Shown: one piece after another, positions 11,938-51,736 of the stretch
Numbering within the stretch: the first letter of the stretch is position 1
Layout: each line of letters starts with the position of its first letter
From: Holosporales bacterium
Lineage (GTDB): Bacteria > Pseudomonadota > Alphaproteobacteria > JAJTHO01
NCBI GenBank assembly: GCA_046318675.1
Contig: JBKCUA010000033.1
Span: 2,858-66,857, forward strand
Direction of reading: 5' to 3'
DNA: 64,000 bases
Program-made: the position numbers and the translations under genes
The notes under the pieces: model-generated
Seen by the model: the letters and a program-made list of their open reading frames with translations, nothing else
Database searches by the model: none
What the model was told of the DNA's origin: nothing

Positions 11938-13870
11938 ACCCTAAAGCACTGGCGATGCCTTTCACCGCGCCTCCTACGGCATCGGAGCCAGCTTTTGCCG
12001 CCGCCGTTGATCCTGTTGCTCTGGTCGCATTGGCAGCTTGTTCCAGCATTTGTGCCGCCTGTCCGGCGACGTTGGTATCCATCCGGCCGGCATCGCTCGT
12101 GGTTTGCGGGTTGACAAAGGCATCGGCGATCTGACCTGTTGCCTTGATGAGCATATTGCTGGTTATACCAATGAAGATGAGTTGAAGCCAGACATCGGTG
12201 CCAAGGGCGTTTTTGGATGGGGTAGTGTTAATAGCGTCCACCGCGCCACTGGTCAGGCCGATAATGGCCGCCTGTATCACCAGTTCTGTGGAGCTTTGGA
12301 TCATGCCTTTGAGGGCGGTGGTGGTGATAGAACGCAGGCCAGGCAGGACAAACGCGGCAATAATCAGGGGGCTAAGCATAGCCAGCAACAGCCAGCGGAT
12401 AATTACATCGGCGGCCTGGAGCGGGAAAAGCAAATACATCTTACCGAAAAACCATAGTATTGGGGCGGCACTGAGAATCATCATAATCAAACCAACAGGA
12501 CTGGTCCATGATCCATCCCACAAGGTTTGCAGAGCCTGCATCAACACCCCGCCGATGCTGCGCTGCATGGCACCGAGGAGACAGGCAGCCGACTTGGCCA
12601 TGGCTTTTCCATCGGCACTGGCACTGTTGAGGTTGCCGCAGAATTCGGAGACAACGCCGCTCATCCCCGTACCTTCCGAGGCGGTGTTTGTTATTATCCC
12701 GGCGGTTTGCATACCCGAGACGACGATGGGCGCATACACATAATGCCAGAAATTTGCAAAACTGCCCAGGAACAAACCCACAAGGAACACGATGCCCATA
12801 CGGCTGACCACCATGTTGTTGAGGTTGTTCATCTGTGCCATGGGGGTAAAGGGGGTGTAGATGCGGGCGACGTGAAATAAACTCCACACTACGGCAAAAA
12901 TGCCCAGCAGGCCGAGCATGGCATTTTGCAGGGCTTTGAAAACCTTCTGGCCATACGTATCACTAATCTCAAGAAGTTTGGCGATCACCTCGCATCCCAT
13001 GCAAGCCTGGATTAAATCTTCGACGGCTAATGATTTTTTGAGTTTATCTATGCTTTTACCAAGTGCTTTCTGGCTGGCACTTTGGGGGTCGTTCATGCCG
13101 CTGCCGGTGGTGGTGCTGGCTTCGCCCCGCTGTTTGGTCAGATCAAGGGCGCAGGCGGCGACCCCTTGTTTTTTTAAACCGGCCAAGGTGGCGGCATCGC
13201 TTTTGGGAAGTTTTTTGATGTCCTCGCTGCTGAGAGTGTTGTTAATAAGATTATCACACGTGATCATATCCTTACAAAAATGGACGGCGGCGGCACCGAT
13301 AGGATCGCGGGCTTGCAGGAAATCCGTGGGGTTAGTAGCGCAGCCGGGCACCGCAAGGTTGACATAGCTTTCTAAGGCTTGCTGTGCGCTGGATGTTTTA
13401 TCAAAAACAGCTTTGCAGGTGGGATCAACCCGGGCATTGCGAATGGCGAAGGTGAGCTTGCTGGCGCACTCGGCGGCGTTGGCCGGGGTTGATGCCGCGG
13501 GCAACGATTTGGCATCGGCAGAAGCCCCCAATTTTTCAGCAACAACTTTTTTGACATCAGGATCGGGATCGTAGTCCTCAATGACAGGGCCGTATTGTGG
13601 GGTTTTCTGCATACCACCAGTCCCGCACTGATTGGAGCGATAATAAACATTTTTGGCTACGTCTTCAGCTTGGGTACGCAGGAGAGCGGCTTTTTTCGGG
13701 TCTGTACTCTGCAAGGCATTGATTTGAGCATTGATACTTTGCTTGATTTTATTATTACATTGTGTGAGGCCTTGCCCCTCTAACCTCCCCGGTTCGGCCA
13801 GGGCGGGCAGGGCACCCAATAGGATAAAAACAGTTAATAAAACGCGGATCATTAGCTCTTTTTCTCCCAC
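11930..13870 (-). CDS. polytopic membrane protein, VirB6/TrbL-like topology (paralogue A; Cys-rich periplasmic N-domain)
   Basis: 646 aa; signal peptide; roughly 300-aa hydrophilic Cys-rich domain; 6 predicted TM helices; hydrophilic Ala/Gly-rich C-tail; shares CxxC...YGxK.F, FW(H/R)YVY.P.VV and LSP motifs with the two upstream ORFs. Confidence 0.4.
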   Translation of the reverse strand: MGEKELMIRVLLTVFILLGALPALAEPGRLEGQGLTQCNNKIKQSINAQINALQSTDPKKAALLRTQAEDVAKNVYYRSNQCGTGGMQKTPQYGPVIEDYDPDPDVKKVVAEKLGASADAKSLPAASTPANAAECASKLTFAIRNARVDPTCKAVFDKTSSAQQALESYVNLAVPGCATNPTDFLQARDPIGAAAVHFCKDMITCDNLINNTLSSEDIKKLPKSDAATLAGLKKQGVAACALDLTKQRGEASTTTGSGMNDPQSASQKALGKSIDKLKKSLAVEDLIQACMGCEVIAKLLEISDTYGQKVFKALQNAMLGLLGIFAVVWSLFHVARIYTPFTPMAQMNNLNNMVVSRMGIVFLVGLFLGSFANFWHYVYAPIVVSGMQTAGIITNTASEGTGMSGVVSEFCGNLNSASADGKAMAKSAACLLGAMQRSIGGVLMQALQTLWDGSWTSPVGLIMMILSAAPILWFFGKMYLLFPLQAADVIIRWLLLAMLSPLIIAAFVLPGLRSITTTALKGMIQSSTELVIQAAIIGLTSGAVDAINTTPSKNALGTDVWLQLIFIGITSNMLIKATGQIADAFVNPQTTSDAGRMDTNVAGQAAQMLEQAANATRATGSTAAAKAGSDAVGGAVKGIASALGFK

Positions 13871-15189
13871 GGAATATTAAATTTTGGTTGGGGTATGTTG
13901 GGGTTTTTGAGCATCTCGGTGACGGTGGGGATACGTTGGCTGATTTGTGAACGGAGTTTTGTACCAATGGCCGCCGGATCCTGGGCAAAGGGGAGCAGGT
14001 TTTGCAGTTGTTTGCGGGTGCTATTGAAGTTGTTACCGATGCTTTTGCCAAGGCGTTCAAAAATTTGCATGGCAAACATTGGCATACGCATGGTTGCCGG
14101 GACTTGGGTGATCTGGTTACTCCAACCCGAAGTTTGCTTTAAAACGGCACCAGTAGCAATATATAATGCCAACAGACGCCAGTAATCAGGCGATAAAATA
14201 CCGTTCTGTAGGGAAAGCCCGGCAACATTGGTGGCATTACCCATATCCAGAACATTTTTAACAATCACCATAAAGACAGCAATCACCCCGCCGGTGAGCA
14301 TGATGTTAATCCCCGACGCAAACAACACCTTGACGGCCAGCGTCGTAATCTGACGGGAAATGGGAAAGATAAACGATAAGGCCAGTACAGGGCTTAAAAT
14401 CGTTATTATCGTTAAATTAATAAGAATGTCCACCACTCGGGCAATGATGAGGAGCAGCAGCGGTGCGGCCGCCGCAATCAACCCCAGCCCTGCCGTCCAG
14501 CGCAGCAGAGACTGACCCCCGCCGCCAACCGTCGCATCCATGTAGCTGACCGTTTCGTTGCCTTTCCACAGATCGTGGCCGAGCTTGATGCCCATGCCCA
14601 GGACGCGCTGCATGATTTCCACGTTGCAGAGAAATTTCTGGGTGGCGTCGCTGCTGACACTGCCGGGGGAAGAGGCGGGAGGAGTGCAGGTGGTGATTTC
14701 CTTATTGCCAACGTATCGGGCGGCGTTGTTGATATAGGCTTGGCTGACTTTACTGCCGACGCTGACGATCATGTCCTGAATGCGCCAGAACAGTTGATAG
14801 TTTTGCACAAGGCCGATGACAATCATGGTTAAGATAAGCTGTTTCACCAGACCGTTGAGCACCTTGGGGGCTTCCTGTCCGCCAAAGGGGCTGAACAGTT
14901 GCCCCGCCTGAAACAGGAACCAGAGGGCTAAAAAGATGCTCAACGGGGTGGCAATCTGCCCGGCGATGAGTTCAAAGGCGCGCTTGCCGTAATCCTGACG
15001 CACGTCGTCCATAAGCTGGAGCAGGGAACACACCCAGCAGGTGCTGTACCAGTCGTCTTTGGTCGGGATCGTCAGCTTGCCGGAGGGGGAAGAGACGGTG
15101 GCCGAATCACCAGCAGCAGCCGGAGCAGGCGTCTGCGCGGCGGCAGGCACGGCAAAAAACAAGAGTAAAAAGAGGAGGAGCGCGCGCAT
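13852..15189 (-). CDS. polytopic membrane protein, VirB6/TrbL-like topology (paralogue B)
   Basis: 445 aa; signal peptide, CWVCSLL...YGKRAF motif, 5-6 TM helices, hydrophilic C-tail; 19-nt overlap with downstream paralogue, 1-nt overlap with upstream ORF. Confidence 0.4.
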   Translation of the reverse strand: MRALLLFLLLFFAVPAAAQTPAPAAAGDSATVSSPSGKLTIPTKDDWYSTCWVCSLLQLMDDVRQDYGKRAFELIAGQIATPLSIFLALWFLFQAGQLFSPFGGQEAPKVLNGLVKQLILTMIVIGLVQNYQLFWRIQDMIVSVGSKVSQAYINNAARYVGNKEITTCTPPASSPGSVSSDATQKFLCNVEIMQRVLGMGIKLGHDLWKGNETVSYMDATVGGGGQSLLRWTAGLGLIAAAAPLLLLIIARVVDILINLTIITILSPVLALSFIFPISRQITTLAVKVLFASGINIMLTGGVIAVFMVIVKNVLDMGNATNVAGLSLQNGILSPDYWRLLALYIATGAVLKQTSGWSNQITQVPATMRMPMFAMQIFERLGKSIGNNFNSTRKQLQNLLPFAQDPAAIGTKLRSQISQRIPTVTEMLKNPNIPQPKFNIPWEKKS

Positions 15190-18100
15190 TAGTTTATTCC
15201 CATTTTTTCGAGTTTTTCTCGAACACCGTCATTCCATTCTTTTTTGGATTCTTCTTTTTTTGCGGCTCTGGCGGCAATTTCTTCTTCTTTTTTAATAATT
15301 TTGTCAGATGCCTGATCTAAATATCTCCTGGCGAAGGTGTCGTATGTTTTAATGGCAGTCTGGACATCGAGTTTTTCTTGGGTGTAGAGCTCTGCCTGTT
15401 TCTCGTTGAGGCGGAGTATTTCTGCTTTAACCTCCGTTTTTTCCCAGCTTAATTTGCTGATCTCTTTGGCAATCTGCGTCGTCATGTTGGCGGGAAGGCC
15501 AGCGGCCAGCATGGCGGTGTTCTCGCGCAGTTTTTTCTCAATGTCGTTGAGGCGGGCGTCGTTAAGGCGGATGCGGTCGCTAAGTTCTTCGTGTTTTTTG
15601 TTATACTCTTCACGGATATCGTTGCGTTTCAGGTCGCCTTTGCCTTCATAGTCTTTCTGGGCGGTTTGAAGAATAGCTTGTTTTTTATCATGGTATTCGT
15701 TGATGTTGCGTATTTTATCGTCACGCTCGCTCATCATGCGGGTAATTTCTTCTTGCCCACTGCGAAGAATAACCTGCCGCAAGGCGCGAATGTCGCCGAG
15801 TTCTTTGGCAATATCGGCGGCGGGGGTTGTAGTGTCTTTACGCAACACATCCTCGCGTTTTTTGAGATCGGCCAGCTCTTGTTTAACGGTATTTTTCATG
15901 TCCTCGATGTTCTTATCCACGTTGCTTAGTGCCTGGTGCCGCTGGGCTTCGTTAGTCATTTCGGCGTGCTTGAGATCAACCATGCGGGAAAGGTTGCCGG
16001 ACCCTCTATTGGCAAGGGTTGCGCCTATTGTGCCACCCCTAAAAAATCCTTCGGCGACGTTAGAAAGTCCGGTGGCATCGGCCATAGTTGTTACAACTGT
16101 TCTCGGTGCGGCGATAATCACTGCGCCAAGGGTAGTAGCAGTAGTTGTTAAAGCCCATTTTCCGATTTCCATTGGTGCATTTTTTATATCATCAATGATC
16201 CGGTCTCTTGTGCCTTTGGCGATTTCACCCAAAGCATTGGTAACCCGATCTGTTGTATCTTTGATGGGTTGCGGGATGGCATCACCGACTTGACCGCTAA
16301 CGGTAGCGACACGTTCACGAACATCACGCAGCAAATTATCAAAGTCTTTTTTAAGGCTTTGAAAATCTTTGTATGGTTCCCGGGTAAAATTGTTGGTGCT
16401 TAAAAAATTGTTCACCCATTCTAAGAATTTTTCAGGCATTTGCATGGTTCCGGTGACAACATATTGCCGGGCGGCTTCTAGATACTGTAGGCCTGAATAG
16501 AGCGCGTCGGATACTTTACCGATATTGCTTGCAGTGCCAGTGGCGAGCCATTGGGCGTTATGTATGGTGCCATTAACAAGCCAAGCAGCACCGCTTCCAA
16601 CGCCTTGCAGCACATTTAAGGTGACGTTAAGAATTTGGTTGTCAACGCGCATTTTGTCGAGTCCTTGTGTAATGCGTCCCCCTAAATCATTCAGGCCATT
16701 GAGTGCATTTTGGCTTAATCTTCCGAGATCATTAAGTCTATCACCCATATACCCCCCCACCGCTCCCCCCACCGCCCCGGCACCGTCTTTGAGTGCATCC
16801 ATCCCTTTTGCCACCAGCTCATTGTTGGCGAGGGCGTTCAACGCGCCTTTGCCGGCAAAGCCGCCAAGGAACCCGGCTACCCCCGCGCCGGCATTCACGA
16901 AAGGAGTGAAGGCAGCACCCATTCCCCCTAACGCCCCGCCAAATGCGCCGAAAAGAGTATCCGTTGTTGTCCTTGCTAAGACGAGGCCTTGTTTAGCTAT
17001 CCAAGGGCCAAAAATCAGCAGCCACGTCGCCGCCATGGCAAAGGTGAGGATGGGCTGTCCAGATTGGCTGCTGCCCTGACCTGAAGCAATCGTGGCGTTG
17101 GGCACGGGTTGGCCGTTGAGGTAGGGGATAGGATCAACAGGATTTCCGCTATAGGGGTTGCTTTCGTCACCACCAAGGCGTAGTTCAAAATGCAGGTGAG
17201 GTCCGGTGGAACCACCCGTGTTGCCAACGTGGGCAATAATCATGCTGACATCCACCTGCTGGCCTTTAGTAACAAAAATTTTATCAAGATGCGCGTAAGC
17301 GGTATTATATCCACCATCGGGGTGATGAATGACGACGAGGTTCCCATACCCCCCTGTACCATTATCATCGGCTTTAATGACAACCCCCGGGGCGGCCGGT
17401 GTAACAGGTGCTCCGATAGGACAGGCGAAATCCACCCCTGCATGTAATTTCATTATACCTTTTATAGGATGCTTTCGCATACCATAACGACTACCTTTAC
17501 CGCCTATGGAGCAAGTACCACCTTGAGTAACTAATTTTATGGGATAGCGCAAACTGCCGTTAAAGGAGGGGGTGCTGCCGCCTTGGGTGGGATCAACGCT
17601 GGTGGTGCTAGCTAGGGGATCGTGGCGGACGTAGCTGCTCAGGGTTTTTGTGGTCGTGGCTGGTGGTGCTGTGGGCGTGTTGCCCTGCATCGCTCCTTGC
17701 ACTGCCGTTGCCGCTGTGCTGGCCGCCCCGGCGACGGCACTGCCTGCTTTGTTCATGCCGGCCTGGACGGTTTTGACGGCTTCTTGAATCACCCCGGCGG
17801 AGAGGACGGCGACAACTGAGACAACGGATAGGGTTAATCCTGCCTCCAGCAACCCTTTAAATCCCGTGTTGGCGTAGTTGCGGGTGGCGGGAAAACAGTA
17901 ACAGCCGATCAGCGCCGGGGACAGGCATGAAATGATCACCCAGCGCATCAGGGCATCAAGGATCATCACCGCAAAGGTTATCGGCGGGGTTATGCTGACA
18001 ACAAACACAATCACGCCGATAAGGAGGTTGTTGGCATTGGCACCAGTTTGGGTGATCATGTACCATCCGGTGGCAATGCCATAGCTGAAGGCGTTTTGAA

Positions 18101-18803
18101 AGCTGTGTACCATGCATTCGAGGCGGTATTGCAGTGAGCGTTCCTCTTCGCTTAGGCCACTGATGACGGTTTTGCTGCACTTATTGCCGTCTTTGAGGGT
18201 GAAGGTATCAACGGTGTATTGGCCGTTTTGCCCTTTGGTGCCCTCGGTCAGCAGGGCGTTGGACATATTAATAGAGATATTGACCACGGGCTTGTAAATA
18301 TACCGCCAATACAAATCATACGACGTCGGAGCCAAAAGAATAATCGAGACGGTGAGCACCAGTGCGCCCTTGGTGAACAGGGTGCTGGCAATGGCGTTGG
18401 TGCGGTTGGCCGGAGCAAAGGGGAGCAGCATTTTGGCCACCTGCACCAACGTCCACAGAACAAAGGCCACGCTCAAGAATGTTGCCACGCCCGATCCGAA
18501 CATGGGCAGCAGTATTTTGCCGTACTGCATGGAGGCGGCGAACAGGCGGCTGATAATACCGCAGGAAAGACATACTCCCGAAAACCAGTTCATGGTGTCG
18601 GTAATGGCGGCAGAGGAGGAGGTCGCAGAGGATGTGCTCTTGGCGGCGGGGGGTGTTGCGGTTGGGGGTGTCGTCGTTGTGGTAGCTGTCGCCGCCGGTG
18701 GAGTACTGCCCGTCGCCATAGCGGGAGACACCCCGCAAACCAGCAGACCAAGCCCCAAAAGGAGCACACCAAAAAAACCAGAACGGGTAAAATACCTCGG
18801 CAA
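15189..18803 (-). CDS. VirB6/TrbL-like membrane domain fused to M23 (LytM) peptidase domain, Gly-rich segment and long C-terminal coiled coil
   Basis: 1204 aa, TTG start with AGGGG SD; N-terminal signal peptide + Thr/Pro-rich stretch + TM bundle homologous to paralogues A/B (VCLSCGI...YGKILLP); M23 motifs HAGVD and HLHFE (about 17110-17470); Gly-rich repeats; last roughly 260 aa heptad-rich charged coiled coil. Confidence 0.55.
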   Translation of the reverse strand: MPRYFTRSGFFGVLLLGLGLLVCGVSPAMATGSTPPAATATTTTTPPTATPPAAKSTSSATSSSAAITDTMNWFSGVCLSCGIISRLFAASMQYGKILLPMFGSGVATFLSVAFVLWTLVQVAKMLLPFAPANRTNAIASTLFTKGALVLTVSIILLAPTSYDLYWRYIYKPVVNISINMSNALLTEGTKGQNGQYTVDTFTLKDGNKCSKTVISGLSEEERSLQYRLECMVHSFQNAFSYGIATGWYMITQTGANANNLLIGVIVFVVSITPPITFAVMILDALMRWVIISCLSPALIGCYCFPATRNYANTGFKGLLEAGLTLSVVSVVAVLSAGVIQEAVKTVQAGMNKAGSAVAGAASTAATAVQGAMQGNTPTAPPATTTKTLSSYVRHDPLASTTSVDPTQGGSTPSFNGSLRYPIKLVTQGGTCSIGGKGSRYGMRKHPIKGIMKLHAGVDFACPIGAPVTPAAPGVVIKADDNGTGGYGNLVVIHHPDGGYNTAYAHLDKIFVTKGQQVDVSMIIAHVGNTGGSTGPHLHFELRLGGDESNPYSGNPVDPIPYLNGQPVPNATIASGQGSSQSGQPILTFAMAATWLLIFGPWIAKQGLVLARTTTDTLFGAFGGALGGMGAAFTPFVNAGAGVAGFLGGFAGKGALNALANNELVAKGMDALKDGAGAVGGAVGGYMGDRLNDLGRLSQNALNGLNDLGGRITQGLDKMRVDNQILNVTLNVLQGVGSGAAWLVNGTIHNAQWLATGTASNIGKVSDALYSGLQYLEAARQYVVTGTMQMPEKFLEWVNNFLSTNNFTREPYKDFQSLKKDFDNLLRDVRERVATVSGQVGDAIPQPIKDTTDRVTNALGEIAKGTRDRIIDDIKNAPMEIGKWALTTTATTLGAVIIAAPRTVVTTMADATGLSNVAEGFFRGGTIGATLANRGSGNLSRMVDLKHAEMTNEAQRHQALSNVDKNIEDMKNTVKQELADLKKREDVLRKDTTTPAADIAKELGDIRALRQVILRSGQEEITRMMSERDDKIRNINEYHDKKQAILQTAQKDYEGKGDLKRNDIREEYNKKHEELSDRIRLNDARLNDIEKKLRENTAMLAAGLPANMTTQIAKEISKLSWEKTEVKAEILRLNEKQAELYTQEKLDVQTAIKTYDTFARRYLDQASDKIIKKEEEIAARAAKKEESKKEWNDGVREKLEKMGIN

Positions 18804-26674: not shown

Positions 26675-27391
26675 TTAATGAAAATTCTGGCCTAAATATA
26701 CCCGGCGGACATCGGGGTGGCTAACAATGGCACTGGGCGTTCCTTGCATTAGGAGTCTTCCGTCGTGAAGAATATAACCCCGGTCAACAATTTTTAGTGT
26801 TTCCCGAACGTTATGATCGGTGATGAGAACACCAATACCTCGGCCTTTCAGATGACCGATGAGGTTACGAATGTCACCTACGGCAATGGGATCAACTCCG
26901 GCTAGAGGTTCATCCAACAAGATGTAGCGTGGGCGCAATGCCAGTGCTCGGGCAATTTCTACTCGGCGACGTTCCCCACCGGACAGAGCAATAGCAGGGG
27001 TGTCACGGACGTGGTTAATGGTGAATTCTTCGAGAAGTTCTTCAAGAAGACGTTTGCGGCGTAGTGTGTCTGGTTCTGCAAGTTCAAGCACGGCTTCAAT
27101 ATTGCCGGCAGCGGTCATGCCGCGGAAGATTGACGTTTCTTGAGGTAGATAGCCTATACCAAGGCGGGCACGGCGATAAAGGGGCAGGGGCGTTATATCA
27201 GTATCATCAAGAAAAATATGACCTACATCGGGACGAACAAGACCAGATATCATATAAAAGCATGTGGTTTTCCCAGCCCCATTGGGACCCATGAGGGCTA
27301 CCGCTTCGCCGGGGCGTACTTCTATGCTAACGTCGTGCACCACAGGGCGACGGCCGTAGGTTTTACCAAGGTGCTGAGCACGCAACGTCAT
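26675..27391 (-). CDS. lptB: LPS export ABC transporter ATP-binding protein LptB
   Basis: 238 aa; near full-length match to LptB pattern ([44 protein letters not shown]). Confidence 0.85.
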
Positions 27392-34487: not shown

Positions 34488-35436
34488 AACCAAGCCCTTG
34501 AGTGTTGTTGCCGTCATGGATCCGGTGGCCGGGATTGATCCGGAGACGGACACCACCTTTGCCCTTATGTTGGAGGCACAGCGTCGTGGCCACCGTGTGT
34601 TTTACGCTCGGCCTGATGATGTGCGCCTTGATAATAAGGGTGTTTCGGCTTGGCTGACTGATGTGACGTTGCATGACGCCAAGCCGCCCCATCATGCCGT
34701 TCTGGGGCACAGTGTTGAGAGCCGCTTTGATAGCATCGACGTGGTGCTTATTCGCCACGATCCGCCGTATGATATGCGGTATTTGACCCCGGCGTATATG
34801 CTGGAATTTTTACCGCCCCATGTTTTCTGCATCAACAACCCCCGCTCCATCCGGGATTGCCCGGAAAAAATTCTGCCGCTACGGTTTCCCGATCTAGTGC
34901 CCAGAACCTTGATTAGCCGTGATCCTAAGGCCTTGCGCGCTTTCTGGGAGGAGGAGGGTACCGCCGTGCTAAAACCCCTCTATCACCACGGCGGTGCGGG
35001 GGTTTTTGTTTTGAAGCCCGGGGACACCAATTTTAACAGCATGGTAGAGCTTCTTCAGGAGCAATACGCCGAACCGCTGATTATTCAACAATACCTGCCC
35101 GCAGTGCGTCAGGGGGATAAGCGGATTCTGCTTCTCGACGGGGAGCCGCTCGGTTGTATTGCCCGAATTCCTAAAGACAACGAAAGCCGGGCTAATCTTC
35201 ATGTGGGCGGTACGGCGGAATACCGCGGGCTTACCCCTAGGGATCATGAAATTTGCAAGGCATTAGCCCCCTTTTTGAGGGAGCGCGACCTATTCTTTGT
35301 CGGCATTGATGTGATTGGGGACTATCTAACGGAAATTAATGTTACCTCCCCAACCGTCTTACCGGAAATGGAGCAGTTGTCCGGCGATAATTTGAGGCAG
35401 CGTGTATGGCAATCTATCGAAGCCAAACGGGCATAA
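34477..35436 (+). CDS. gshB: glutathione synthetase
   Basis: near full-length similarity pattern to GshB (ATP-grasp: RHDPPYDMRY, NNPRSIRDCPEK, LPAVRQGDKRILLLDGEP, TEINVTSPT); start overlaps yraN stop. Confidence 0.88.
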   Translation: MSLKTKPLSVVAVMDPVAGIDPETDTTFALMLEAQRRGHRVFYARPDDVRLDNKGVSAWLTDVTLHDAKPPHHAVLGHSVESRFDSIDVVLIRHDPPYDMRYLTPAYMLEFLPPHVFCINNPRSIRDCPEKILPLRFPDLVPRTLISRDPKALRAFWEEEGTAVLKPLYHHGGAGVFVLKPGDTNFNSMVELLQEQYAEPLIIQQYLPAVRQGDKRILLLDGEPLGCIARIPKDNESRANLHVGGTAEYRGLTPRDHEICKALAPFLRERDLFFVGIDVIGDYLTEINVTSPTVLPEMEQLSGDNLRQRVWQSIEAKRA

Positions 35437-36497
35437 GCGCACGATCCGGCGAGATTCTTGCCCACGTCGTGGATGCCTACCTCGACACGGGGGAACCGGT
35501 GGGATCGAAGACCCTTGCCCAGCGCATGGGGTTAACCCTTTCTTCGGCCACGATTCGTAATGTGTTGATGGAATTAGAGGGGCGCGGTTTACTGTATGCG
35601 CCGCATACATCGGCGGGGCGATTACCGACGGAAGCAGGACTGCGCTATTTTGTCCACGGCTTGCTGGAATATGGTCAGGTTGCGCCGGATGCGGCGGCGG
35701 CCATTGGTGATACCTGCCGCTTGTCCGGTAAAAGTTATGAGCAAGCACTAGCTGAAGTAGGCGGGGTTTTGTCCGGTCTTGCTCATTGTGCTGGCTTTGT
35801 CTTGGCCCCCAAAGAGGATGAACCGATTCGTCAAGTTGAGTTTGTGGGTTTATCTGGGGATAAGGCTTTGGTGGTTTTGGTTTTGGAAAATGGGGTGGTG
35901 GAAAACCGTATTATTGAGACGTTGCCAGGGACAACATCGGCACAATTGCGTGAGGCCAGCTTGATTCTCAGTGATCGCTTAGTGGGCAAAACACTGGATC
36001 AAGTAGAACAGTTATTGGCACAAGAAGTTCAAGAATACCGCGATAATCTTGATGTTCTAATAGGCCGGTTGCTTCAGGCTGGCTTAGCTGTTTGGGGGGG
36101 TGATACGCCAAAGCAATCGCTTATTGTTCGTGGTCAAGCCCATTTGCTCGAAGAGGCGGCATTTGCTGGTGATACGGAAAAGGTGCGCCAATTGTTTGCT
36201 GCCCTTGAGACGCGGCAGACGTTGGCACAGTTGCTGACAGCAACGCGTGCGGCTCAGGGGGTACAAATCTTTATTGGTGCGGATAATGAGTTGTTCGGTA
36301 TTGCCGGGTGTTCTGCAATTGTTGCTCCATTTCGTAATACGACGGATAAAATTGTTGGGGCTATTGGGGTGATTGGTTCGGCGCGGCTTAATTATGCGCA
36401 CGTCATCCCCATGGTGGATTTTACCGCTAAAATGCTTACTAGACGCTTGGGTGGGAAAGAAACCGGCTCATTTAAGTCCACAGCGCAGGGTGGGTAG
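35406..36497 (+). CDS. hrcA: heat-inducible transcription repressor HrcA
   Basis: 363 aa; N-terminal winged-helix (ILAHVVDAYLDTGEPVGSKTLAQ), HrcA C-domain. Confidence 0.8.
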   Translation: MAIYRSQTGISARSGEILAHVVDAYLDTGEPVGSKTLAQRMGLTLSSATIRNVLMELEGRGLLYAPHTSAGRLPTEAGLRYFVHGLLEYGQVAPDAAAAIGDTCRLSGKSYEQALAEVGGVLSGLAHCAGFVLAPKEDEPIRQVEFVGLSGDKALVVLVLENGVVENRIIETLPGTTSAQLREASLILSDRLVGKTLDQVEQLLAQEVQEYRDNLDVLIGRLLQAGLAVWGGDTPKQSLIVRGQAHLLEEAAFAGDTEKVRQLFAALETRQTLAQLLTATRAAQGVQIFIGADNELFGIAGCSAIVAPFRNTTDKIVGAIGVIGSARLNYAHVIPMVDFTAKMLTRRLGGKETGSFKSTAQGG

Positions 36498-36580: not shown

Positions 36581-37222
36581 ATGTTTATTGTGCAAGCGTT
36601 ACAGGTTAGTTGTTTGAGCGGTACAATGATATCGGTGCCGTATTTTCGGCTGACTGAAAGTCAAACTTGTTTGGTGCGTGGAGCGTACAGTGAGGCTTCG
36701 TTTAGCCTATTATTAACATTAGTCGGGCTTGGGCATGTGATGGAAGGCAAGGTGAATCTTTGCGGAATAGATATTTATAAACTAAGCACATCAGCGCGTG
36801 ATAAATTCAGGGCGGTACATATGGGAGTTGTAGCGCGCCGCCGGTCGTTATTGGCGGGTCTTAGTGTCCAGAAAAACATGGCTATAGCCGCGAAGTTGGC
36901 GGGAAGAAAGCTAACGATGGAAGTAATACATGGGTTATTGGCACCATTGAATGTGAGTCATCTAGTAAATACTAAGGCCGAGGTTTTAGATTATATGCAG
37001 GCGCGGCGGGTTAGCGTTGCGAAGAGTTTAGTAAATAGTCCTAAGGTTTTATTTTTAGAAGAGCCTACTGCCGATATGTATCCCTATCATGCGGATGATT
37101 TTATGGATACGGTAAAGACATTAGCTCAAAAAAATGGTACGATTTTGGTGGTAATAAGCAACGATGCTCGATTGGAAGGGCAGTTCGAGCAGACAGTAAT
37201 AATTGAAGGAGATGCAACGTGA
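36581..37222 (+). CDS. ABC-ATPase-fold protein with all catalytic motifs degenerate (pseudo-ATPase)
   Basis: 213 aa; Walker A position reads GAYSEASFS (no Lys), signature reads YMQARRVSVAKSL, Walker B LFLEEPT (D to E), H-loop VVISND (H to N). Confidence 0.5.
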   Translation: MFIVQALQVSCLSGTMISVPYFRLTESQTCLVRGAYSEASFSLLLTLVGLGHVMEGKVNLCGIDIYKLSTSARDKFRAVHMGVVARRRSLLAGLSVQKNMAIAAKLAGRKLTMEVIHGLLAPLNVSHLVNTKAEVLDYMQARRVSVAKSLVNSPKVLFLEEPTADMYPYHADDFMDTVKTLAQKNGTILVVISNDARLEGQFEQTVIIEGDAT

Positions 37223-37794
37223 TGGTAGCCTGGATGTTTCTACGGCGGCGATTGTGTGCCGTATTGGCAAACAGTTTCTTTGCATCAGTGATGTTGGCGA
37301 CGGTGTTAGTGTTGTGGAAATGTTTGCAGCAAATTCCACCAGTTGCATTGACTGCTGTATTGGGTGAAGATGTGGAAGTATTGGCACGGACGCTGGAGAT
37401 TTTTGGGTTACCAGTGAAGATTTTCTTTGTGGTGATTGGTGTTTTTTCTTTTGTAGGATTTTTGTGTTTTTTTACCTCTTCGGTGCGGGAATATCGTCCA
37501 GAATTAGCATGGTTGCGGGTGACGGGTGTTACAAGATGGTCGTTGCTGCGGTTGCTGGTGTTGCAAGGGGTATTAGTGGCTGGTTGGGTGGTTTTGTTTG
37601 GAGTTGGTATTGGTTATGCTACATTGTTTTGGTTGCAGGATGCCCTTGTTGGACAATCGTTTGTATTCAATATGCCGCAGGTATGGGAAATTATAGTGTT
37701 TAGTGCAGTATTTGCCGCGGTGGTATTGGCGAGCTTATGGTCGGCAGTGATGGCAGCGCGTACCCCTGTGGATGATATTCTTGGTCGCTTATGA
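37219..37794 (+). CDS. minimal FtsX-like permease (4 TM)
   Basis: 191 aa; 4 TM helices, LRVTGVTRWSLLRLLVLQG resembling FtsX/LolC permease-domain motif; very short periplasmic loop; ATGA overlap with upstream and downstream genes. Confidence 0.45.
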   Translation: MMVAWMFLRRRLCAVLANSFFASVMLATVLVLWKCLQQIPPVALTAVLGEDVEVLARTLEIFGLPVKIFFVVIGVFSFVGFLCFFTSSVREYRPELAWLRVTGVTRWSLLRLLVLQGVLVAGWVVLFGVGIGYATLFWLQDALVGQSFVFNMPQVWEIIVFSAVFAAVVLASLWSAVMAARTPVDDILGRL

Positions 37795-38099
37795 TAATGT
37801 TGTATTGCCCCTGTCCGTCTAAGGCGGTGGCCCAGCAACTTGCTATTGATTTGCTTAATAAGCATCTTATTGGTTGTGCTAATATTCTGCCGATGATGGC
37901 CTCAATATATTGGTGGGAAGGGCAGATTACCGAAGAGATCGAGGTAGTATTGCTGGCAAAGACTCTGATAGCGAGGCAGGACGCGGTGCGCCAAGCAGTG
38001 GAAGCCGCTCATCCTTATACTGTGCCGTGCATTGCTTTCCTGCCTTTGGAGGGGGTCAATGAAGCGTATCAGAATTTTGTGAGGCGAAGCCTTGCTTAA
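37791..38099 (+). CDS. cutA: divalent-cation tolerance protein CutA
   Basis: 102 aa; CutA1 fold sequence (AQQLAIDLLNKHLIGCANI...IYWWEGQI...HPYTVPCIAFLPLEG). Confidence 0.8.
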   Translation: MIMLYCPCPSKAVAQQLAIDLLNKHLIGCANILPMMASIYWWEGQITEEIEVVLLAKTLIARQDAVRQAVEAAHPYTVPCIAFLPLEGVNEAYQNFVRRSLA

Positions 38100-46443: not shown

Positions 46444-48456
46444 TTATGCGGCTTGGGTTTGCGGCATTGCTAGACGCTGGGGGCGACCTAGACGGCGCAG
46501 GCTGTTAATATCAAGAATTAGAGAGACCCGGCCATCGCCAAGGATTGTGGCTCCGGAAATACCGGGGATTGGGTCGGCATTGGCCTCTAGGCTTTTGATG
46601 ACTACTTGTTGTTGGCCAAGCAGTTCATCAACAACGAGACCAATAGTTTCGCCACCAGCATCTACCAAAACCACTAAGTTTTTTTGTGAGTCAAGACAGA
46701 TGTTGGAAATATTGAAGATTTGGTGGAGGTAGAGAACTGGGATAAAGGCACCACGTACGTTAATAACATCGCTGTACCCATCAAGATGACGCACATCTTC
46801 AGAGCGTGGGCGCAGGCTTTCGATGATACTGGTAATAGGAATGATGTAATGTTCCATCCCAACACGTACGATCATGCCGTCTAAGATTGCTAAGGTAAGG
46901 GGCAGGGATACCGTAAAGGTTGATCCGGTACCGGGACGGTTGGTGACTTGGACTGTACCGCCAAGACCTTCAATATTACGACGTACCACATCCATGCCAA
47001 CACCGCGCCCTGAGACGTTGGATACTTGTTCGGCAGTGGAGAAACCTGGAAGGAAAATAAGCTGATCGCATTCGCTGTCGCTTAAAATTGTATCCGTGGC
47101 GATAAGCCCCTTATCTTTTGCTTTGCGCAAGACTTTTTCCCGGTTAATGCCTCCACCGTCATCGTTGACCTCAATAACAATTCGACCACCTCGATGAAAA
47201 GCAGCTAGGCTGATTGTTCCTTGAGCCGGTTTACCGGAGGCCAAGCGATCAGTTGGGCGTTCAATACCATGATCAACAGCATTGCGGATCATATGGTTTA
47301 AAGGATCGGCGAGCTGTTCGATGATAGTTTTATCAACCTCGGTATTTTCACCGCTGGTGATTAGGCGAATATCTTTCCCCAATTGTGTTGAGAGATCACG
47401 GACGATGCGTGGAATCCTGGCAAAAATAGATTTTACTGGCTGCATCCGAACGGCCATGACGGCTTCTTGGATTTCTCTTGTGTGTTGGCTGAGTTCTTCA
47501 ATGCCGCGCATGAGATCGGTGAACTGCTCATTGGGTAATAATCTCGCTTGGGCACGAAGCATGGCTTCAGTGATGACTAACTCCCCAACCATATTTATCA
47601 GGCGATCAATTTTTTCTAAATCAACACGGATAGAGGTAACCCCAGATGCGGTCGGGGTGGTTTTGTCTGATGCAGGCGAGGTAGTGGATGATTGCACAGC
47701 AACAATAGTAGGTTGTTCTGAATTTTGAACGGTCAATGTTAACGTACATTGGTCGTCAACAAATTCAAACACTTCACGGATTTTTGCTTCTGTGGCCTCG
47801 GTATGCAGCTGTATAGACCAACCAAGATAGCACTTGGTTGAATCCAAATTATCCAGAAGCGGTAAGCGGTGGGTAATGGCGTTTATTTGTGTGTCGCCTA
47901 GTGTTTTTAGCTCGCGCAGAATAAGGAGGGGTTCGTTGCCACTGAAAAACAGGGTTTCATGTGGTATGAAATCAATATTGTATAATCGTTGCTGCGAGAG
48001 TCTTTCCGGCGTTTCATCAAAAATGCCGTAGGCTGTTTCCGTGCTGGCAGACGTCCCGTTTTTGTTGCCCAGAAGTTTTTCGAGCTTGGTAAGTAGCATG
48101 CCGCCAAGCCCGGGTGGAGGGGTTTCATTGTGTTCTGCAGCCTGTACCATTTTGCTTACGACATCAACGGATTCTAAAAGTGCATCCACCACCTCAGCGG
48201 TGGCTGGGATAGTGCCGCTGCGCATCGCATCGAGCAGGGCTTCCAGTGCATGGGTAAAATGGGTGATATAGTCTAAACCAAAAGCACCAGACCCGCCTTT
48301 AATAGAATGTGCGCAACGGAAAATGGCATTGAGTTGTTCGGTATCGGCCTGATGCGCATCAAGGCCGAGCAGCCTTGTTTCCATTTCTCCTAAAAGCTCA
48401 TAGCATTCGGTGATATAGGTTGCACGGAACTGGTCGAGTGTACTCATAGCGGGCAC
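46444..48456 (-). CDS. cheA: chemotaxis histidine kinase CheA
   Basis: 670 aa; Hpt (CAHSIKGGSGAFGL), dimerisation, HATPase_c (G1/G2 boxes) and C-terminal CheW-like domain. Confidence 0.9.
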   Translation of the reverse strand: MPAMSTLDQFRATYITECYELLGEMETRLLGLDAHQADTEQLNAIFRCAHSIKGGSGAFGLDYITHFTHALEALLDAMRSGTIPATAEVVDALLESVDVVSKMVQAAEHNETPPPGLGGMLLTKLEKLLGNKNGTSASTETAYGIFDETPERLSQQRLYNIDFIPHETLFFSGNEPLLILRELKTLGDTQINAITHRLPLLDNLDSTKCYLGWSIQLHTEATEAKIREVFEFVDDQCTLTLTVQNSEQPTIVAVQSSTTSPASDKTTPTASGVTSIRVDLEKIDRLINMVGELVITEAMLRAQARLLPNEQFTDLMRGIEELSQHTREIQEAVMAVRMQPVKSIFARIPRIVRDLSTQLGKDIRLITSGENTEVDKTIIEQLADPLNHMIRNAVDHGIERPTDRLASGKPAQGTISLAAFHRGGRIVIEVNDDGGGINREKVLRKAKDKGLIATDTILSDSECDQLIFLPGFSTAEQVSNVSGRGVGMDVVRRNIEGLGGTVQVTNRPGTGSTFTVSLPLTLAILDGMIVRVGMEHYIIPITSIIESLRPRSEDVRHLDGYSDVINVRGAFIPVLYLHQIFNISNICLDSQKNLVVLVDAGGETIGLVVDELLGQQQVVIKSLEANADPIPGISGATILGDGRVSLILDINSLRRLGRPQRLAMPQTQAA

Positions 48457-48824: not shown

Positions 48825-49112
48825 TTAAGGGTTTGTAAGTAAGGACTGTAGGCCTAAATCTTTGAAAATAGACTGTACAGGCGGGGTGGTGCCGATGATG
48901 TGAAGACGGCTGTTTTTTGCCTGTAGGCTTTTTTGTAAAGAAAGAAGAACCTGTATCCCTGGGGTGGTAATATTTTCTAGCGTTTCGGCATTGAGGCTTA
49001 CTGTTGCGTTTTCATGGATTGTTAAGTCCCGAAGAAGCACTTCACAGAAACTGTTTGCTGTTTCAATGGTGAGTTGTGTGGGAAGAGTAAGCATCTTTAG
49101 AACTCCTGCCAA
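48825..49112 (-). CDS. STAS-domain protein in CheS/CheX position of alphaproteobacterial che operon
   Basis: about 90 aa between MCP and cheY; anti-sigma-antagonist-like pattern ([22 protein letters not shown]); alt start 49094. Confidence 0.5.
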
Positions 49113-51736
49113 TCTTTGTCATAGTTTTGTGCTGGGGCACTGTTCCCTGATGGCTTGCGCCCTGGGTTTTGTTTACGGACGGGGCGAGGAGGTGGAGTCG
49201 GGCGAACAACGGGGGTTTGTACCGATTGGCTCGTCTGTTGGCGGGCGGCATCCTGGCTAATTTTGAAGAAGGATACCAGCTGTTCCAGTTGGTTAGCCTG
49301 CTCCACAAGGGACTGTGCAGCGGCGGTATTTTCTTCTACTAAGGCGGCGTTTTGTTGGGTCATCTCATCCATCTGGGTGATGGCACTGTTGATCTCTTCA
49401 ATGCCGTTAGTTTGTTCTTTCGTCGCCCCGGATATTTCGGAAATGATTGTATTGACGTTGTTATTCGTGGAAACGATTTCTTTCAGGCTGGAGCCGGCTT
49501 GGTTAACCAATTCAGCACCCACGCGCACTTGTTCGTTACTTTCTTGGATGAGTTGTTTAATTTCTTTAGAAGAGGCAGCAGAACGGCCAGCCAAGGATCG
49601 CACTTCTGAGGCGACAACGGCAAAGCCTTTTCCGGCATCCCCGGCTCTGGCCGCTTCAACGGCGGCATTGAGAGCCAATAGGTTGGTTTGGAAAGCAATC
49701 TCATCAATAACCCCGATGATGTCAGAAACTTTTTTGGAGGATTGCTCAATCTGAGACATGGCCGCCACGGCTTTATCCACGACATCGCCGCCTTTTTGAG
49801 CAAGTTCTTGTGCTTTGAGGGATATTTTTGTTGCCTCATCGGTGTTTTGGGCATTTTGGCGGACGGTGCTGGTAAGCTCTTCCATCGAAGCAGCGGTTTC
49901 TTCCAAGGAGGAGGCTTGGTTTTCCGTACGCTGAGAGAGATCAGCACTTCCCGATGATATTTCGGAAGCGGCGGATCCTACCAGTTCTGATGCCTGTTTG
50001 ATGTTAACCACTGTTTCGGTAAGTTTTTCGACCGTGGTGTTGATGGCATTTTTGATGGTGGCAAACGTGCCCTTGTAGTCTTTGTTCATTTTTAAAGTGA
50101 GATCGCCGCTGGCAACGCCTTGCAGGACGTGCATGGATTCTTCCATGCCGATTTCGTTTTCAAGGCGTGTTTCCACGGTATCAGTAATTTCGTTGGCAAA
50201 TTTGACAATCTTAACGATATTGCCGTTGGGGTCGAGAATGGGGTTGTAGGATGCATTGATCCAGAATTTCCGGCCGCCTTTGGCAATGCGCTTGAACTCG
50301 GTGATCTTGGATTGCCCGGCGTTCAGGTTTGCCCAGAATTGCTGGTACTCGGGGCTATCTTTTTCTGCTGGTTCAACAAAAATACTATGATGTTTGCCTT
50401 TGATTTCATCCATAGTATACCCGGTGACGTGTAGGAAGTTTTGGTTAGCATTGCGAATATAGCCTTTGGTATCAAACTCAATAACTGCTTGTGAACGGCT
50501 AATCGCGGCAAGTTGTCCAGAGTAATCAGCGACAGTATTCTTGATGTTGTTGAGAGCCTGCGCCAGGTTGCCGAACTCATCTTTTCTCTCAAGGCCGTCA
50601 ATGATCATCTTATAATCAGCATCAGCTAGACGTTTGGCAACATCTGTTGCCTTCTGAATGGGGCGGCTAGCAAAAGTACCAACCAGGGCACCAATACCGC
50701 CTAATCCAATAACGGCAACTATCATAATCTGTTTTAGAAGAGCTTTTGTGCTAATAACATTAGCAAAAGCTTCGCTGGCAGGTTCATGAACAATGACAGT
50801 CCAACCTAAGCCAGGAAAGCCGATGGCTCCGTTGCTGGCTTCCCAGCTGACGGCAGTTTCGGTGTTGTGATCGTTACTGATGCTGCTGCCTTGGCTGTTT
50901 TTAAGGGCGTCGTTAGCAGCAGGAATGCCCATTGTGGCTAATTTTTTCTGACCTATGCTGCTACTGTCACGTCTGTAATTGCTGGTACCCTGTGCGGTGG
51001 GATCATAATTGACGAGGGCAGTGCCATTATTGTCCTGTATGGCAAAAGCAATGTTGGTTGCACCATTGCTTTTCGCTTGGTTATAGATATCGGCGACAAT
51101 GCTTTCTACAAGACCGAAATCGGCAAAGGTAACCCAGACGCCAATCATGTCTTTCTTGCTGTTGTATACGGGTGCAGAAAAAGCGATGGTGAAGCCATCC
51201 TCACGATAGGCATCAGCCACAATTTTTTCATAGGCGGGTTGTTGAACGGCGGTGCCGTCTAGGGAAGGGCTACTGAGGAAGTTTTTATTTTTTGCCTGTT
51301 GGAACCAACGGGCATCCTTAAAATTACGGTTGTAAAGACCAATGGTTTCTAGGGGGTTACCTTTGTTATCAATATTATTGACGGCAGCCACTCGACCCTC
51401 AAGATCAAGCAGCATCATGAGCTTGTAAAGCCCGTAGTTAACCATGTAGCTGTTCATGGAAGAAATCAGGGGGTTATCTGCACTGGGGCGGAACCAGTTA
51501 CGGTTATCTAGAGCGGCACCGTTGTAACCGAAGGCCTGTACATCACCATAACGCTCGAATAAGTTACGGTCGATGAGTTCACCGACAGTTCCTGCGGTGA
51601 TCCGCATATTGCTAAGACTACCATCCCGCATTTCATTAAGCTTGCCGAAAATAATAGGCATGACTGAAAGCAAGGGTAGTAACCCAAACACAAGTAATAG
51701 TGCTACGAGTTTTAGGCGAACATCGAAACGTGGCAT
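49097..51736 (-). CDS. methyl-accepting chemotaxis protein with periplasmic Cache-like domain, HAMP, cytoplasmic PAS and C-terminal DWQEF pentapeptide
   Basis: 879 aa; TM1 near N-term, roughly 280-aa periplasmic domain, TM2, PAS-like segment ([19 protein letters not shown]...), MCP signalling domain ([14 protein letters not shown]), C-terminus ...DWQEF (49100-49114). Confidence 0.85.

Follow-up and report, generated by a model that had tools for sequence, protein, structure and literature searches.

A 64,000-nucleotide stretch of DNA from a Holosporales bacterium (GCA_046318675.1, contig JBKCUA010000033.1, positions 2,858-66,857, forward strand; hereafter the window) carries two adjoining genes whose products resemble the ATPase and the membrane subunit of an ATP-binding cassette (ABC) system, with the gene cutA directly behind them. 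Judged from its sequence, the pair is a type VII ABC system without engine and output domain, confined to a narrow, uncultured clade of Holosporales. The three genes, in window coordinates, are as follows.

36581..37222, plus strand: ABC-like gene, 213 residues, ATG start; ABC fold, putative pseudo nucleotide-binding domain
37219..37794, plus strand: FtsX-like gene, 191 residues; FtsX-domain membrane protein with four predicted transmembrane helices
37791..38099, plus strand: cutA (CutA1 family); Pfam CutA1 PF03091, 101.1 bits against a cut-off of 22.4

The fold of the ABC-like protein appears to be kept. The protein belongs to the Pfam family PF00005 (ABC_tran; 33.7 bits against a cut-off of 25), and its AlphaFold2 model reached a predicted local distance difference test (pLDDT) value of 92.9, although the 67-sequence alignment used consisted mostly of canonical relatives, and what the model chiefly shows is that the fold can accommodate this sequence. 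Foldseek matched the model to YbbA, LolD, the ATPase domain of MacB, FtsE, HrtA and BceA with TM-scores of 0.80-0.85. We then read the catalytic motifs from residue-by-residue alignments to LolD and YbbA and from a 26-sequence alignment with the 24 nearest canonical relatives, all of which retain the catalytic positions nearly invariant. Compared with these proteins, the ABC-like protein departs from the motif at seven sites. Five of them are listed below, together with the residues found in the sequence P0001 and in two orthologous loci of a second Holosporales lineage, L001 and L011.

36680..36706, plus strand: Walker A relic, GAYSEASFS (G34-S42) in place of GxSGxGK[ST]
36836..36838, plus strand: Q-loop position, Gln replaced by R86; His in P0001, Gln in L001 and L011
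36986..37000, plus strand: ABC signature relic, LDYMQ (L136-Q140) in place of LSxGQ; LDYAQ in L001 and L011
37046..37063, plus strand: Walker B relic, VLFLEE; Asp replaced by E160, catalytic E161 kept; Gln at the Asp position in L001 and L011
37160..37162, plus strand: H-loop position, His replaced by N194; SND in all orthologues

In the Walker A relic the lysine has become Ser, two glycines are lost, and bulky Tyr, Glu and Phe residues occupy the loop; the signature has lost both its Ser and its Gly. The other two sites are the D-loop, where LD is replaced by M166-Y167 and the Asp is lost, and the A-loop, where the aromatic residue is replaced by C11. The alignments thus bear out what a first-pass annotation of this DNA had stated, that every catalytic motif is substituted and both open reading frames are intact. 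It had quoted the signature as YMQAR, which is the right site read two residues late. Because the Walker A side and the signature side are both lost, in addition to the H-loop and the A-loop, a homodimer of this protein would have no competent site; the protein probably cannot work as an ATP-driven machine, and we would not expect it to bind nucleotide. The sole other ABC ATPase encoded in the window, LptB (26675-27391 on the minus strand; 352 bits, cut-off 240), served as an internal control and has canonical motifs including TDH, so the motif loss is not general in this genome.

The partner protein has lost a domain rather than motifs. The FtsX-like protein matches Pfam PF02687 with 39.6 bits (cut-off 25.5) over residues 68-180, covering helices 2-4, and hydropathy shows four segments at residues ~11-37, 54-90, 107-139 and 152-182; these segments, together with a low-confidence AlphaFold2 secondary structure, agree with the four transmembrane helices of a MacB-type (type VII) permease. 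The N-terminal RRR cluster and the basic character of the loop joining helices 2 and 3 suggest that both termini are cytoplasmic. The large periplasmic domain (~100-280 residues) that a type VII permease has between helices 1 and 2 is missing, and Pfam MacB_PCD gave no match in the protein. When a profile of four full-length permeases of the nearest canonical systems (401-473 residues, MacB_PCD and FtsX) was compared with the FtsX-like protein, profile positions 6-41 (helix 1) aligned weakly and positions 320-447 (helices 2-4) clearly, and ~26 residues replaced the ~278 profile positions of the periplasmic domain. The flanking genes leave no space for remnants of the domain, so the deletion seems to be clean and in frame. 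The two loops that flank helix 2 are these.

37318..37407, plus strand: short non-cytoplasmic loop between helices 1 and 2 (residues 34-63), at the site of the MacB periplasmic core domain
37480..37554, plus strand: loop joining helices 2 and 3 on the cytoplasmic side, VREYRPELAWLRVTGVTRWSLLRL, corresponding to the major coupling helix of MacB-type permeases

The coupling-helix loop (RPELAWLRV-G-TRWSLLRL) is the best conserved segment of the FtsX-like protein between lineages (80-85% identical) and aligns to 'kerkydlailrslGaskvkl' of the relatives' permease profile. By analogy with MacB-family structures (PMC5985334), it may be the docking site for the ABC-like protein. Comparison of the FtsX-like protein with solved structures, as a single sequence and as a three-sequence profile, gave no meaningful match, and a word-indexed search for its homologues returned only a 99%-identical sequence.

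The degenerate pair is not peculiar to one assembly. A word-indexed search with the ABC-like protein returned one 98%-identical and one 77%-identical protein, the latter annotated as coming from a Holosporales metagenome-assembled genome. The 90%-identity clusters of these two orthologues hold 7 and 25 sequences, respectively, from NCBI, JGI, ENA and Logan assemblies; most members have 213 residues and the shorter ones lie mostly on short contigs. Over 30 database sequences, which come from two lineages of Holosporales, contain the pair in intact form (protein identity 77% and 60%). In the loci of the second lineage (L001 and L011) and in three loci of the window's own lineage (L002-L004), the gene order is the same, (gshB, hrcA), ABC-like, FtsX-like, cutA, followed by frr, pyrH, DUF87, bolA and dnaJ, so that the order from hrcA to cutA is conserved beyond the lineage in which it was first noticed. 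A scan of a genome collection with the neighbouring DUF87 ATPase for more distant Holosporales returned only L011.

The second lineage is degenerate too, reading GAYGEASFS, LDYAQ[A/E]RR, F[L/V]QEPT, ADMYPY and SND; in the 77%-identical orthologue (GAYGEASFS, LDYAQ, FLQEPT, SND) the degenerate residues are either kept or drifted further. The former catalytic positions vary even among close relatives, with R, H or Q at the Q-loop, E or Q in Walker B and M or A in the signature. Among orthologues, conservation of the ABC-like protein is highest at residues 18-60, which comprise the former P-loop and the following helix (95-100% identical). The open reading frames have identical lengths in both lineages, 213 and 191 residues. 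We estimated the ratio of nonsynonymous to synonymous substitution rates (dN/dS) between the window and L001 by the Nei-Gojobori method, and obtained 0.09 for the ABC-like gene and 0.22 for the FtsX-like gene, along with 0.09 for cutA, 0.08 for DUF87, 0.05 for pyrH and 0.03 for frr. The uncorrected proportion of synonymous differences (pS) was ~0.6 against a nonsynonymous proportion (pN) of 0.14 for the ABC-like and 0.21 for the FtsX-like gene (pN/pS 0.21 and 0.36). These values indicate that the pair is maintained by purifying selection. With dN/dS at 0.09 and 0.22, it is also well supported that the ABC-like protein is, as the first-pass annotation had proposed, a long-lived non-catalytic protein and not a recent pseudogene; the values likewise speak against an assembly error. 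A sequencing or assembly artefact was rejected as well: the same degenerate sequence occurs in more than 30 entries from many samples and two lineages, and LptB in the same window is canonical.

From which family the pair arose was approached by score ranking and by gene context. All NCBIfam matches of the ABC-like protein were below threshold, namely LolD, FtsE, DevA, YbbA (60 against 336 bits) and MacB. Assignment as FtsE (TIGR02673, 67.6 bits against an equivalog cut-off of 264.85) and as LolD (TIGR02211, 77.4 bits against an equivalog cut-off of 307.75) was rejected on these scores. In a profile search of 1.84 billion representative proteins, matches with E <1e-30 comprised the window clade and one unrelated two-domain protein; next came a dense set of canonical ATPases of ~210 residues at 85-126 bits. 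With phmmer, these ~210-residue ATPases scored 92-101 bits to the ABC-like protein, as compared with 59 for YbbA and 55 for LolD. We read the gene neighbourhoods of seven such canonical relatives. In six, the ATPase gene is directly followed by one for a permease of 401-473 residues with MacB_PCD and FtsX domains; at the seventh locus (L010) the contig ends within the gene that follows. A DUF3299 protein usually comes after the permease, and a Fur-family regulator, cobW, a DksA-like gene or MerC lies nearby. The DUF3299 proteins of the relatives match PDB entry 4hsp, which is PA4066 (PMC8561739). The Vibrio zrg operon contains a DUF3299 gene (ZrgE), an ABC ATPase and a permease (PMC9817125), and models of PA4064/PA4065 depict a split MacB-type exporter controlled by Zur (PMC11481552). 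The PA4064/Zrg type is thus the probable parent subfamily, a placement drawn from score ranking and gene context rather than from a resolved tree or a direct comparison with PA4064.

The operon of a 210-residue ATPase, a 400-470-residue MacB_PCD/FtsX permease and a DUF3299 protein is itself widespread: the canonical relatives' loci that carry it, L005, L006, L007, L008, L013 and L014, come from Bacteroidota (Pedobacter, Flavobacteriales), Balneolaceae and metagenome contigs. In the papers that we read, no description of this operon outside Pseudomonas and Vibrio was found. These loci suggest that zinc-starvation responses may commonly include the PA4064-PA4066/Zrg module, far outside these two genera.

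Motif loss seems to have happened more than once in this ATPase family. When 275 retrieved proteins were screened for the three main motifs, one further protein lacking all of them was found, P0099 (222 residues; GCA_965188255.1, contig CBCZDA010000014.1, locus L012). It reads TGANGIAL, LDAAQ, LEDPT and SND and retains the Q-loop Gln and the D-loop Asp. P0099 is a member of the same ~210-residue ATPase family, 29% identical to the ABC-like protein of the window, and shares with it three identical changes, Ser to Asp in the signature, Asp to Glu in Walker B and His to Asn in the H-loop. Unlike the window pair, P0099 is accompanied by a permease (P0298) of 378 residues with the MacB periplasmic domain. 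A degeneration shared by common descent found no support: in a motif-masked neighbour-joining tree, P0099 grouped with the window clade in 2/100 bootstraps. The permease scores did not discriminate on whether P0099 and the window clade share ancestry. The motif loss in P0099 was thus probably independent of that in the window clade. The P0099 pair (L012 8001-9802) lies downstream of an AsnC-type regulator, and L012 also holds a canonical pair, a 230-residue ATPase with an 838-residue FtsX-domain permease.

Among known systems, PA4064/PA4065 and the Vibrio zrg pair resemble the window pair in having a separate ATPase of ~210 residues followed by a four-helix FtsX-domain permease, and the subfamily shares the local features DKFR and QxQRV with the ABC-like protein. 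However, its canonical members have all the catalytic motifs and permeases of 401-473 residues with a MacB periplasmic core domain, and they adjoin Fur-family, cobW, DksA-like or DUF3299 genes, whereas the window pair has none of these and lies between hrcA and cutA. PA4064/65 has been reported to export cobalt-pyochelin (PMC11481552). LolD and YbbA are the best solved-structure matches of the ABC-like protein by sequence and fold, but at scores far below the family cut-offs; moreover, the periplasmic domains of LolC, LolE and YbbP are large, and the ATPases of these systems are catalytically competent. FtsEX likewise belongs to the type VII ABC systems and pairs a separate ATPase with a four-helix FtsX-domain protein, and FtsE has a TM-score of 0.85 to the ABC-like model. 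FtsX differs in that its periplasmic domain binds EnvC, PcsB or RipC, a domain that the FtsX-like protein lacks. The comparison with FtsEX made in the first-pass annotation therefore holds at the level of the fold and fails at the level of the family, the nearest active relatives belonging to another type VII subfamily.

Catalytic ABC motifs are naturally substituted, with the protein retained, in heterodimeric exporters and CFTR. There, only one of the two composite sites is degenerate and still binds ATP, and the other site is active, whereas the window subunit has lost both the Walker A and the signature sides. In the literature searched, no precedent was found for a bacterial ABC ATPase with all its motifs dead or for an FtsX protein lacking the periplasmic domain, which is absence of evidence only.

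The arrangement of the genes gives further indications of how the pair may be expressed. The upstream neighbour and the spacer in front of the ABC-like gene contain the following features.

35406..36497, plus strand: hrcA, upstream neighbour; Pfam HrcA 180 bits
36522..36580, plus strand: conserved non-coding block; putative own promoter, 5' untranslated region and ribosome-binding site (AGGG)

The FtsX-like and cutA genes overlap by ATGA at 37791-37794, and the same overlap is present in L001 and L011. ATGA had been claimed for both junctions, but the one between the ABC-like and FtsX-like genes reads GTGATG in the window, which allows either a GTG start with a 4-nucleotide overlap or an ATG start at 37222 with a 1-nucleotide overlap; in L001 this junction is ATGA. 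The overlapping start and stop codons are the evidence from which we infer that the pair is co-transcribed with cutA. The hrcA gene is probably a separate transcription unit: its spacer to the ABC-like gene, 83 nucleotides in the window, varies in length, and a weak terminator-like hairpin lies at 36476-36495. The ~60 nucleotides in front of the ABC-like start have hardly changed when the window is compared with L001 and L011, although the two lineages differ at ~26% of coding nucleotides, whereas the remainder of the spacer is unconserved (83 against 318 nucleotides, with different sequence). Because this block is conserved while the rest of the spacer varies, it suggests a promoter or leader of the pair's own, apart from hrcA. 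A consensus scan of the block gave no promoter and no Rfam family matched it, and searches for RNA elements and defence systems around the pair returned nothing significant. The genes for frr, pyrH and the DUF87/HerA-like ATPase lie on the minus strand and converge with the ABC-like/FtsX-like/cutA set. The stop codons of cutA and frr overlap by 4 nucleotides (38096-38099), likewise in L001 and L011, so there is no room for a terminator between the two convergent units. Horizontal transfer of the pair was considered, but its guanine-plus-cytosine (GC) content of 0.44-0.46, against a window mean of 0.50, is similar to that of frr and DUF87 and gives no clear signal.

On balance, we consider it probable that the pair is a remnant of a split MacB-type system that has become a small ATP-independent membrane complex under purifying selection. 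The two proteins would be what survives, in cytoplasm and membrane, of the core of a split MacB-type (type VII) ABC system whose parent subfamily normally resides in zinc-starvation (Zur/Fur-type) operons such as those of PA4064/PA4065 and Zrg. Within one lineage of Holosporales, the ATPase subunit would have lost every residue for ATP binding and hydrolysis, and the permease its whole periplasmic domain through a clean in-frame deletion. Selection acting on both genes, and also on the coupling helix and on the overlap of start with stop codons, argues that the pair still forms a membrane complex and that it is made together with CutA; the pseudo-ATPase would most likely still dock on the conserved coupling helix of the four-helix subunit. 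The resulting small complex would be ATP-independent, neither pumping a substrate nor transmitting force, and may act as a scaffold, an anchor or a regulatory module, possibly with CutA, whose gene appears to be translationally coupled. Mechanotransmission or scaffolding had been suggested for the pair. For mechanotransmission, the pair has neither an energy source nor a periplasmic output domain; a stroke of the MacB type (PMC5985334) would have nothing to act on once the periplasmic domain is missing.

More specifically, trimeric CutA might be anchored or regulated by a complex of the pseudo-ATPase with the four-helix subunit, a type VII module turned into an ATP-independent device without a periplasmic domain. 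Origin in a metal-starvation transporter next to a 'divalent cation tolerance' gene is suggestive. However, cutA is absent from all seven canonical relatives' loci examined, so the link would be lineage-specific and is speculative, and we regard this form of the proposal as rather doubtful.

Several observations weigh against the remnant-complex reading. Complex formation is deduced from homology and conservation only, and AlphaFold2, given an alignment of only two near-identical sequences of the FtsX-like protein, produced an unusable model with four long helices and a low pLDDT of 53. The PA4064/Zrg assignment depends on score ranking and the gene context of relatives, and the pair adjoins no Fur/Zur or DUF3299 gene, its neighbours being hrcA, cutA, frr and pyrH. 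With respect to selection, dS between the lineages is saturated (1.1-1.9), and the within-lineage pN/pS of ~0.5-0.6 is uninformative, with only 1-5 substitutions per class. Finally, the cluster of P0002 contains a copy on one 6.2-kb JGI contig in which the ABC-like gene is split into 78 and 114 residues (P0283 and P0284). It is the sole disrupted copy among ~30, and the split reflects either a genuine frameshift in one population or a mistake in assembly.

Some of these observations would fit another view, in which the genes are slowly decaying remnants, already without function but so far free of stop codons. The host-dwelling Holosporales tend towards gene decay, the protein sequences of the pair evolve ~3x faster than those of frr, pyrH or hrcA, the sites that were once catalytic drift, one contig has the split reading frame, and the within-lineage pN/pS is ~0.5-0.6, though on only 3-8 changes. 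Nevertheless, the same lengths have been kept across lineages at a pS of ~0.6 while pN is only 0.14 and 0.21, the ABC-like dN/dS equals that of cutA and the DUF87 ATPase gene, and the overlapping start and stop codons and the 60-nucleotide upstream block are conserved. The conservation is also patterned, with the coupling helix and the former P-loop region almost invariant, and we find decay unlikely. It seems equally improbable to us that the ABC-like protein is still a nucleotide-dependent engine, through non-canonical binding or a composite site formed with a canonical ATPase encoded elsewhere, as in heterodimeric exporters. Some features speak for it. E161, the catalytic Glu, persists along with the EPT motif, and in the orthologue the fourth Walker A position is Gly and the Q-loop residue Gln. 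ABC systems with one degenerate site are well known, and the former P-loop region might be so strongly conserved because it now forms a site for a new ligand. A transporter can remain competent for translocation with a single functional ATPase domain (PMC5985334). But with both halves of the composite site damaged, a heterodimer would have no intact site either, and the A-loop, H-loop and D-loop are lost as well. Furthermore, type VII ATPase subunits are homodimeric in all matched solved systems, and the only other ABC ATPase in the window is LptB.

Least credible of all, in our judgment, is an FtsEX-like regulator of a cell-wall hydrolase, with the pair controlling an M23 peptidase. The type VII fold and the presence of an M23 domain in the window speak for it, and a functional link to the M23 module had been entertained before. 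The protein falls far short of the FtsE model, as given above, and there is neither a periplasmic domain to bind a hydrolase or an EnvC-like adaptor nor an ATPase to drive activation. The M23 domain itself lies ~18 kb off on the other strand, within a TrbL/VirB6 fusion in a type IV secretion cluster and not in an EnvC-like partner, so that the supposed link is unsupported. The fusion is encoded by an open reading frame for 1204 residues at 15189-18803 (minus strand), with the TrbL/VirB6 domain at residues 149-360 and Peptidase_M23 at residues 453-550, and a second VirB6-like open reading frame (13852-15189, minus strand) adjoins it. By its domain content, the fusion is a type IV secretion component and not an EnvC-like adaptor. 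A VirB6-M23 fusion is unusual and may provide built-in peptidoglycan cutting.

Elsewhere, the window encodes a chemotaxis set with a PAS/HAMP chemoreceptor (49097-51736) and CheA (46444-48456), as well as lpxD/A/I/B, a cyclopropane-fatty-acid synthase cluster, a bifunctional ATP sulfurylase/adenosine 5'-phosphosulfate kinase, a major facilitator superfamily transporter and kdpA. These gene sets span 42-51 kb, 19.7-24 kb, 51.8-57.2 kb and 61.5-63.2 kb. The GC content is ~50%. Such a functional range is unexpected for Holosporales, a group generally described as obligately host-associated.

The clade that carries the pair is narrow and uncultured, which weighs against its significance. Homodimeric ABC ATPase subunits are, however, among the most motif-constrained proteins known, and here every catalytic motif is substituted and the permease is without its output domain, yet purifying selection still keeps both genes. 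The proteins of the pair are labelled as ordinary ABC transporter subunits in public databases, and counting them as transport capacity in metabolic reconstructions of Holosporales would be wrong. If the CutA-anchoring proposal were true, the relic of a zinc/cobalt-starvation transporter would be linked to divalent-cation homeostasis and CutA would gain a defined membrane partner, and P0099 would suggest that the ~210-residue ATPases have been repeatedly recruited to non-catalytic roles. A real link to CutA would also provide an experimental handle on that protein. The pair may thus be seen as a natural experiment on what an ABC fold and a MacB-type four-helix bundle do without ATP.

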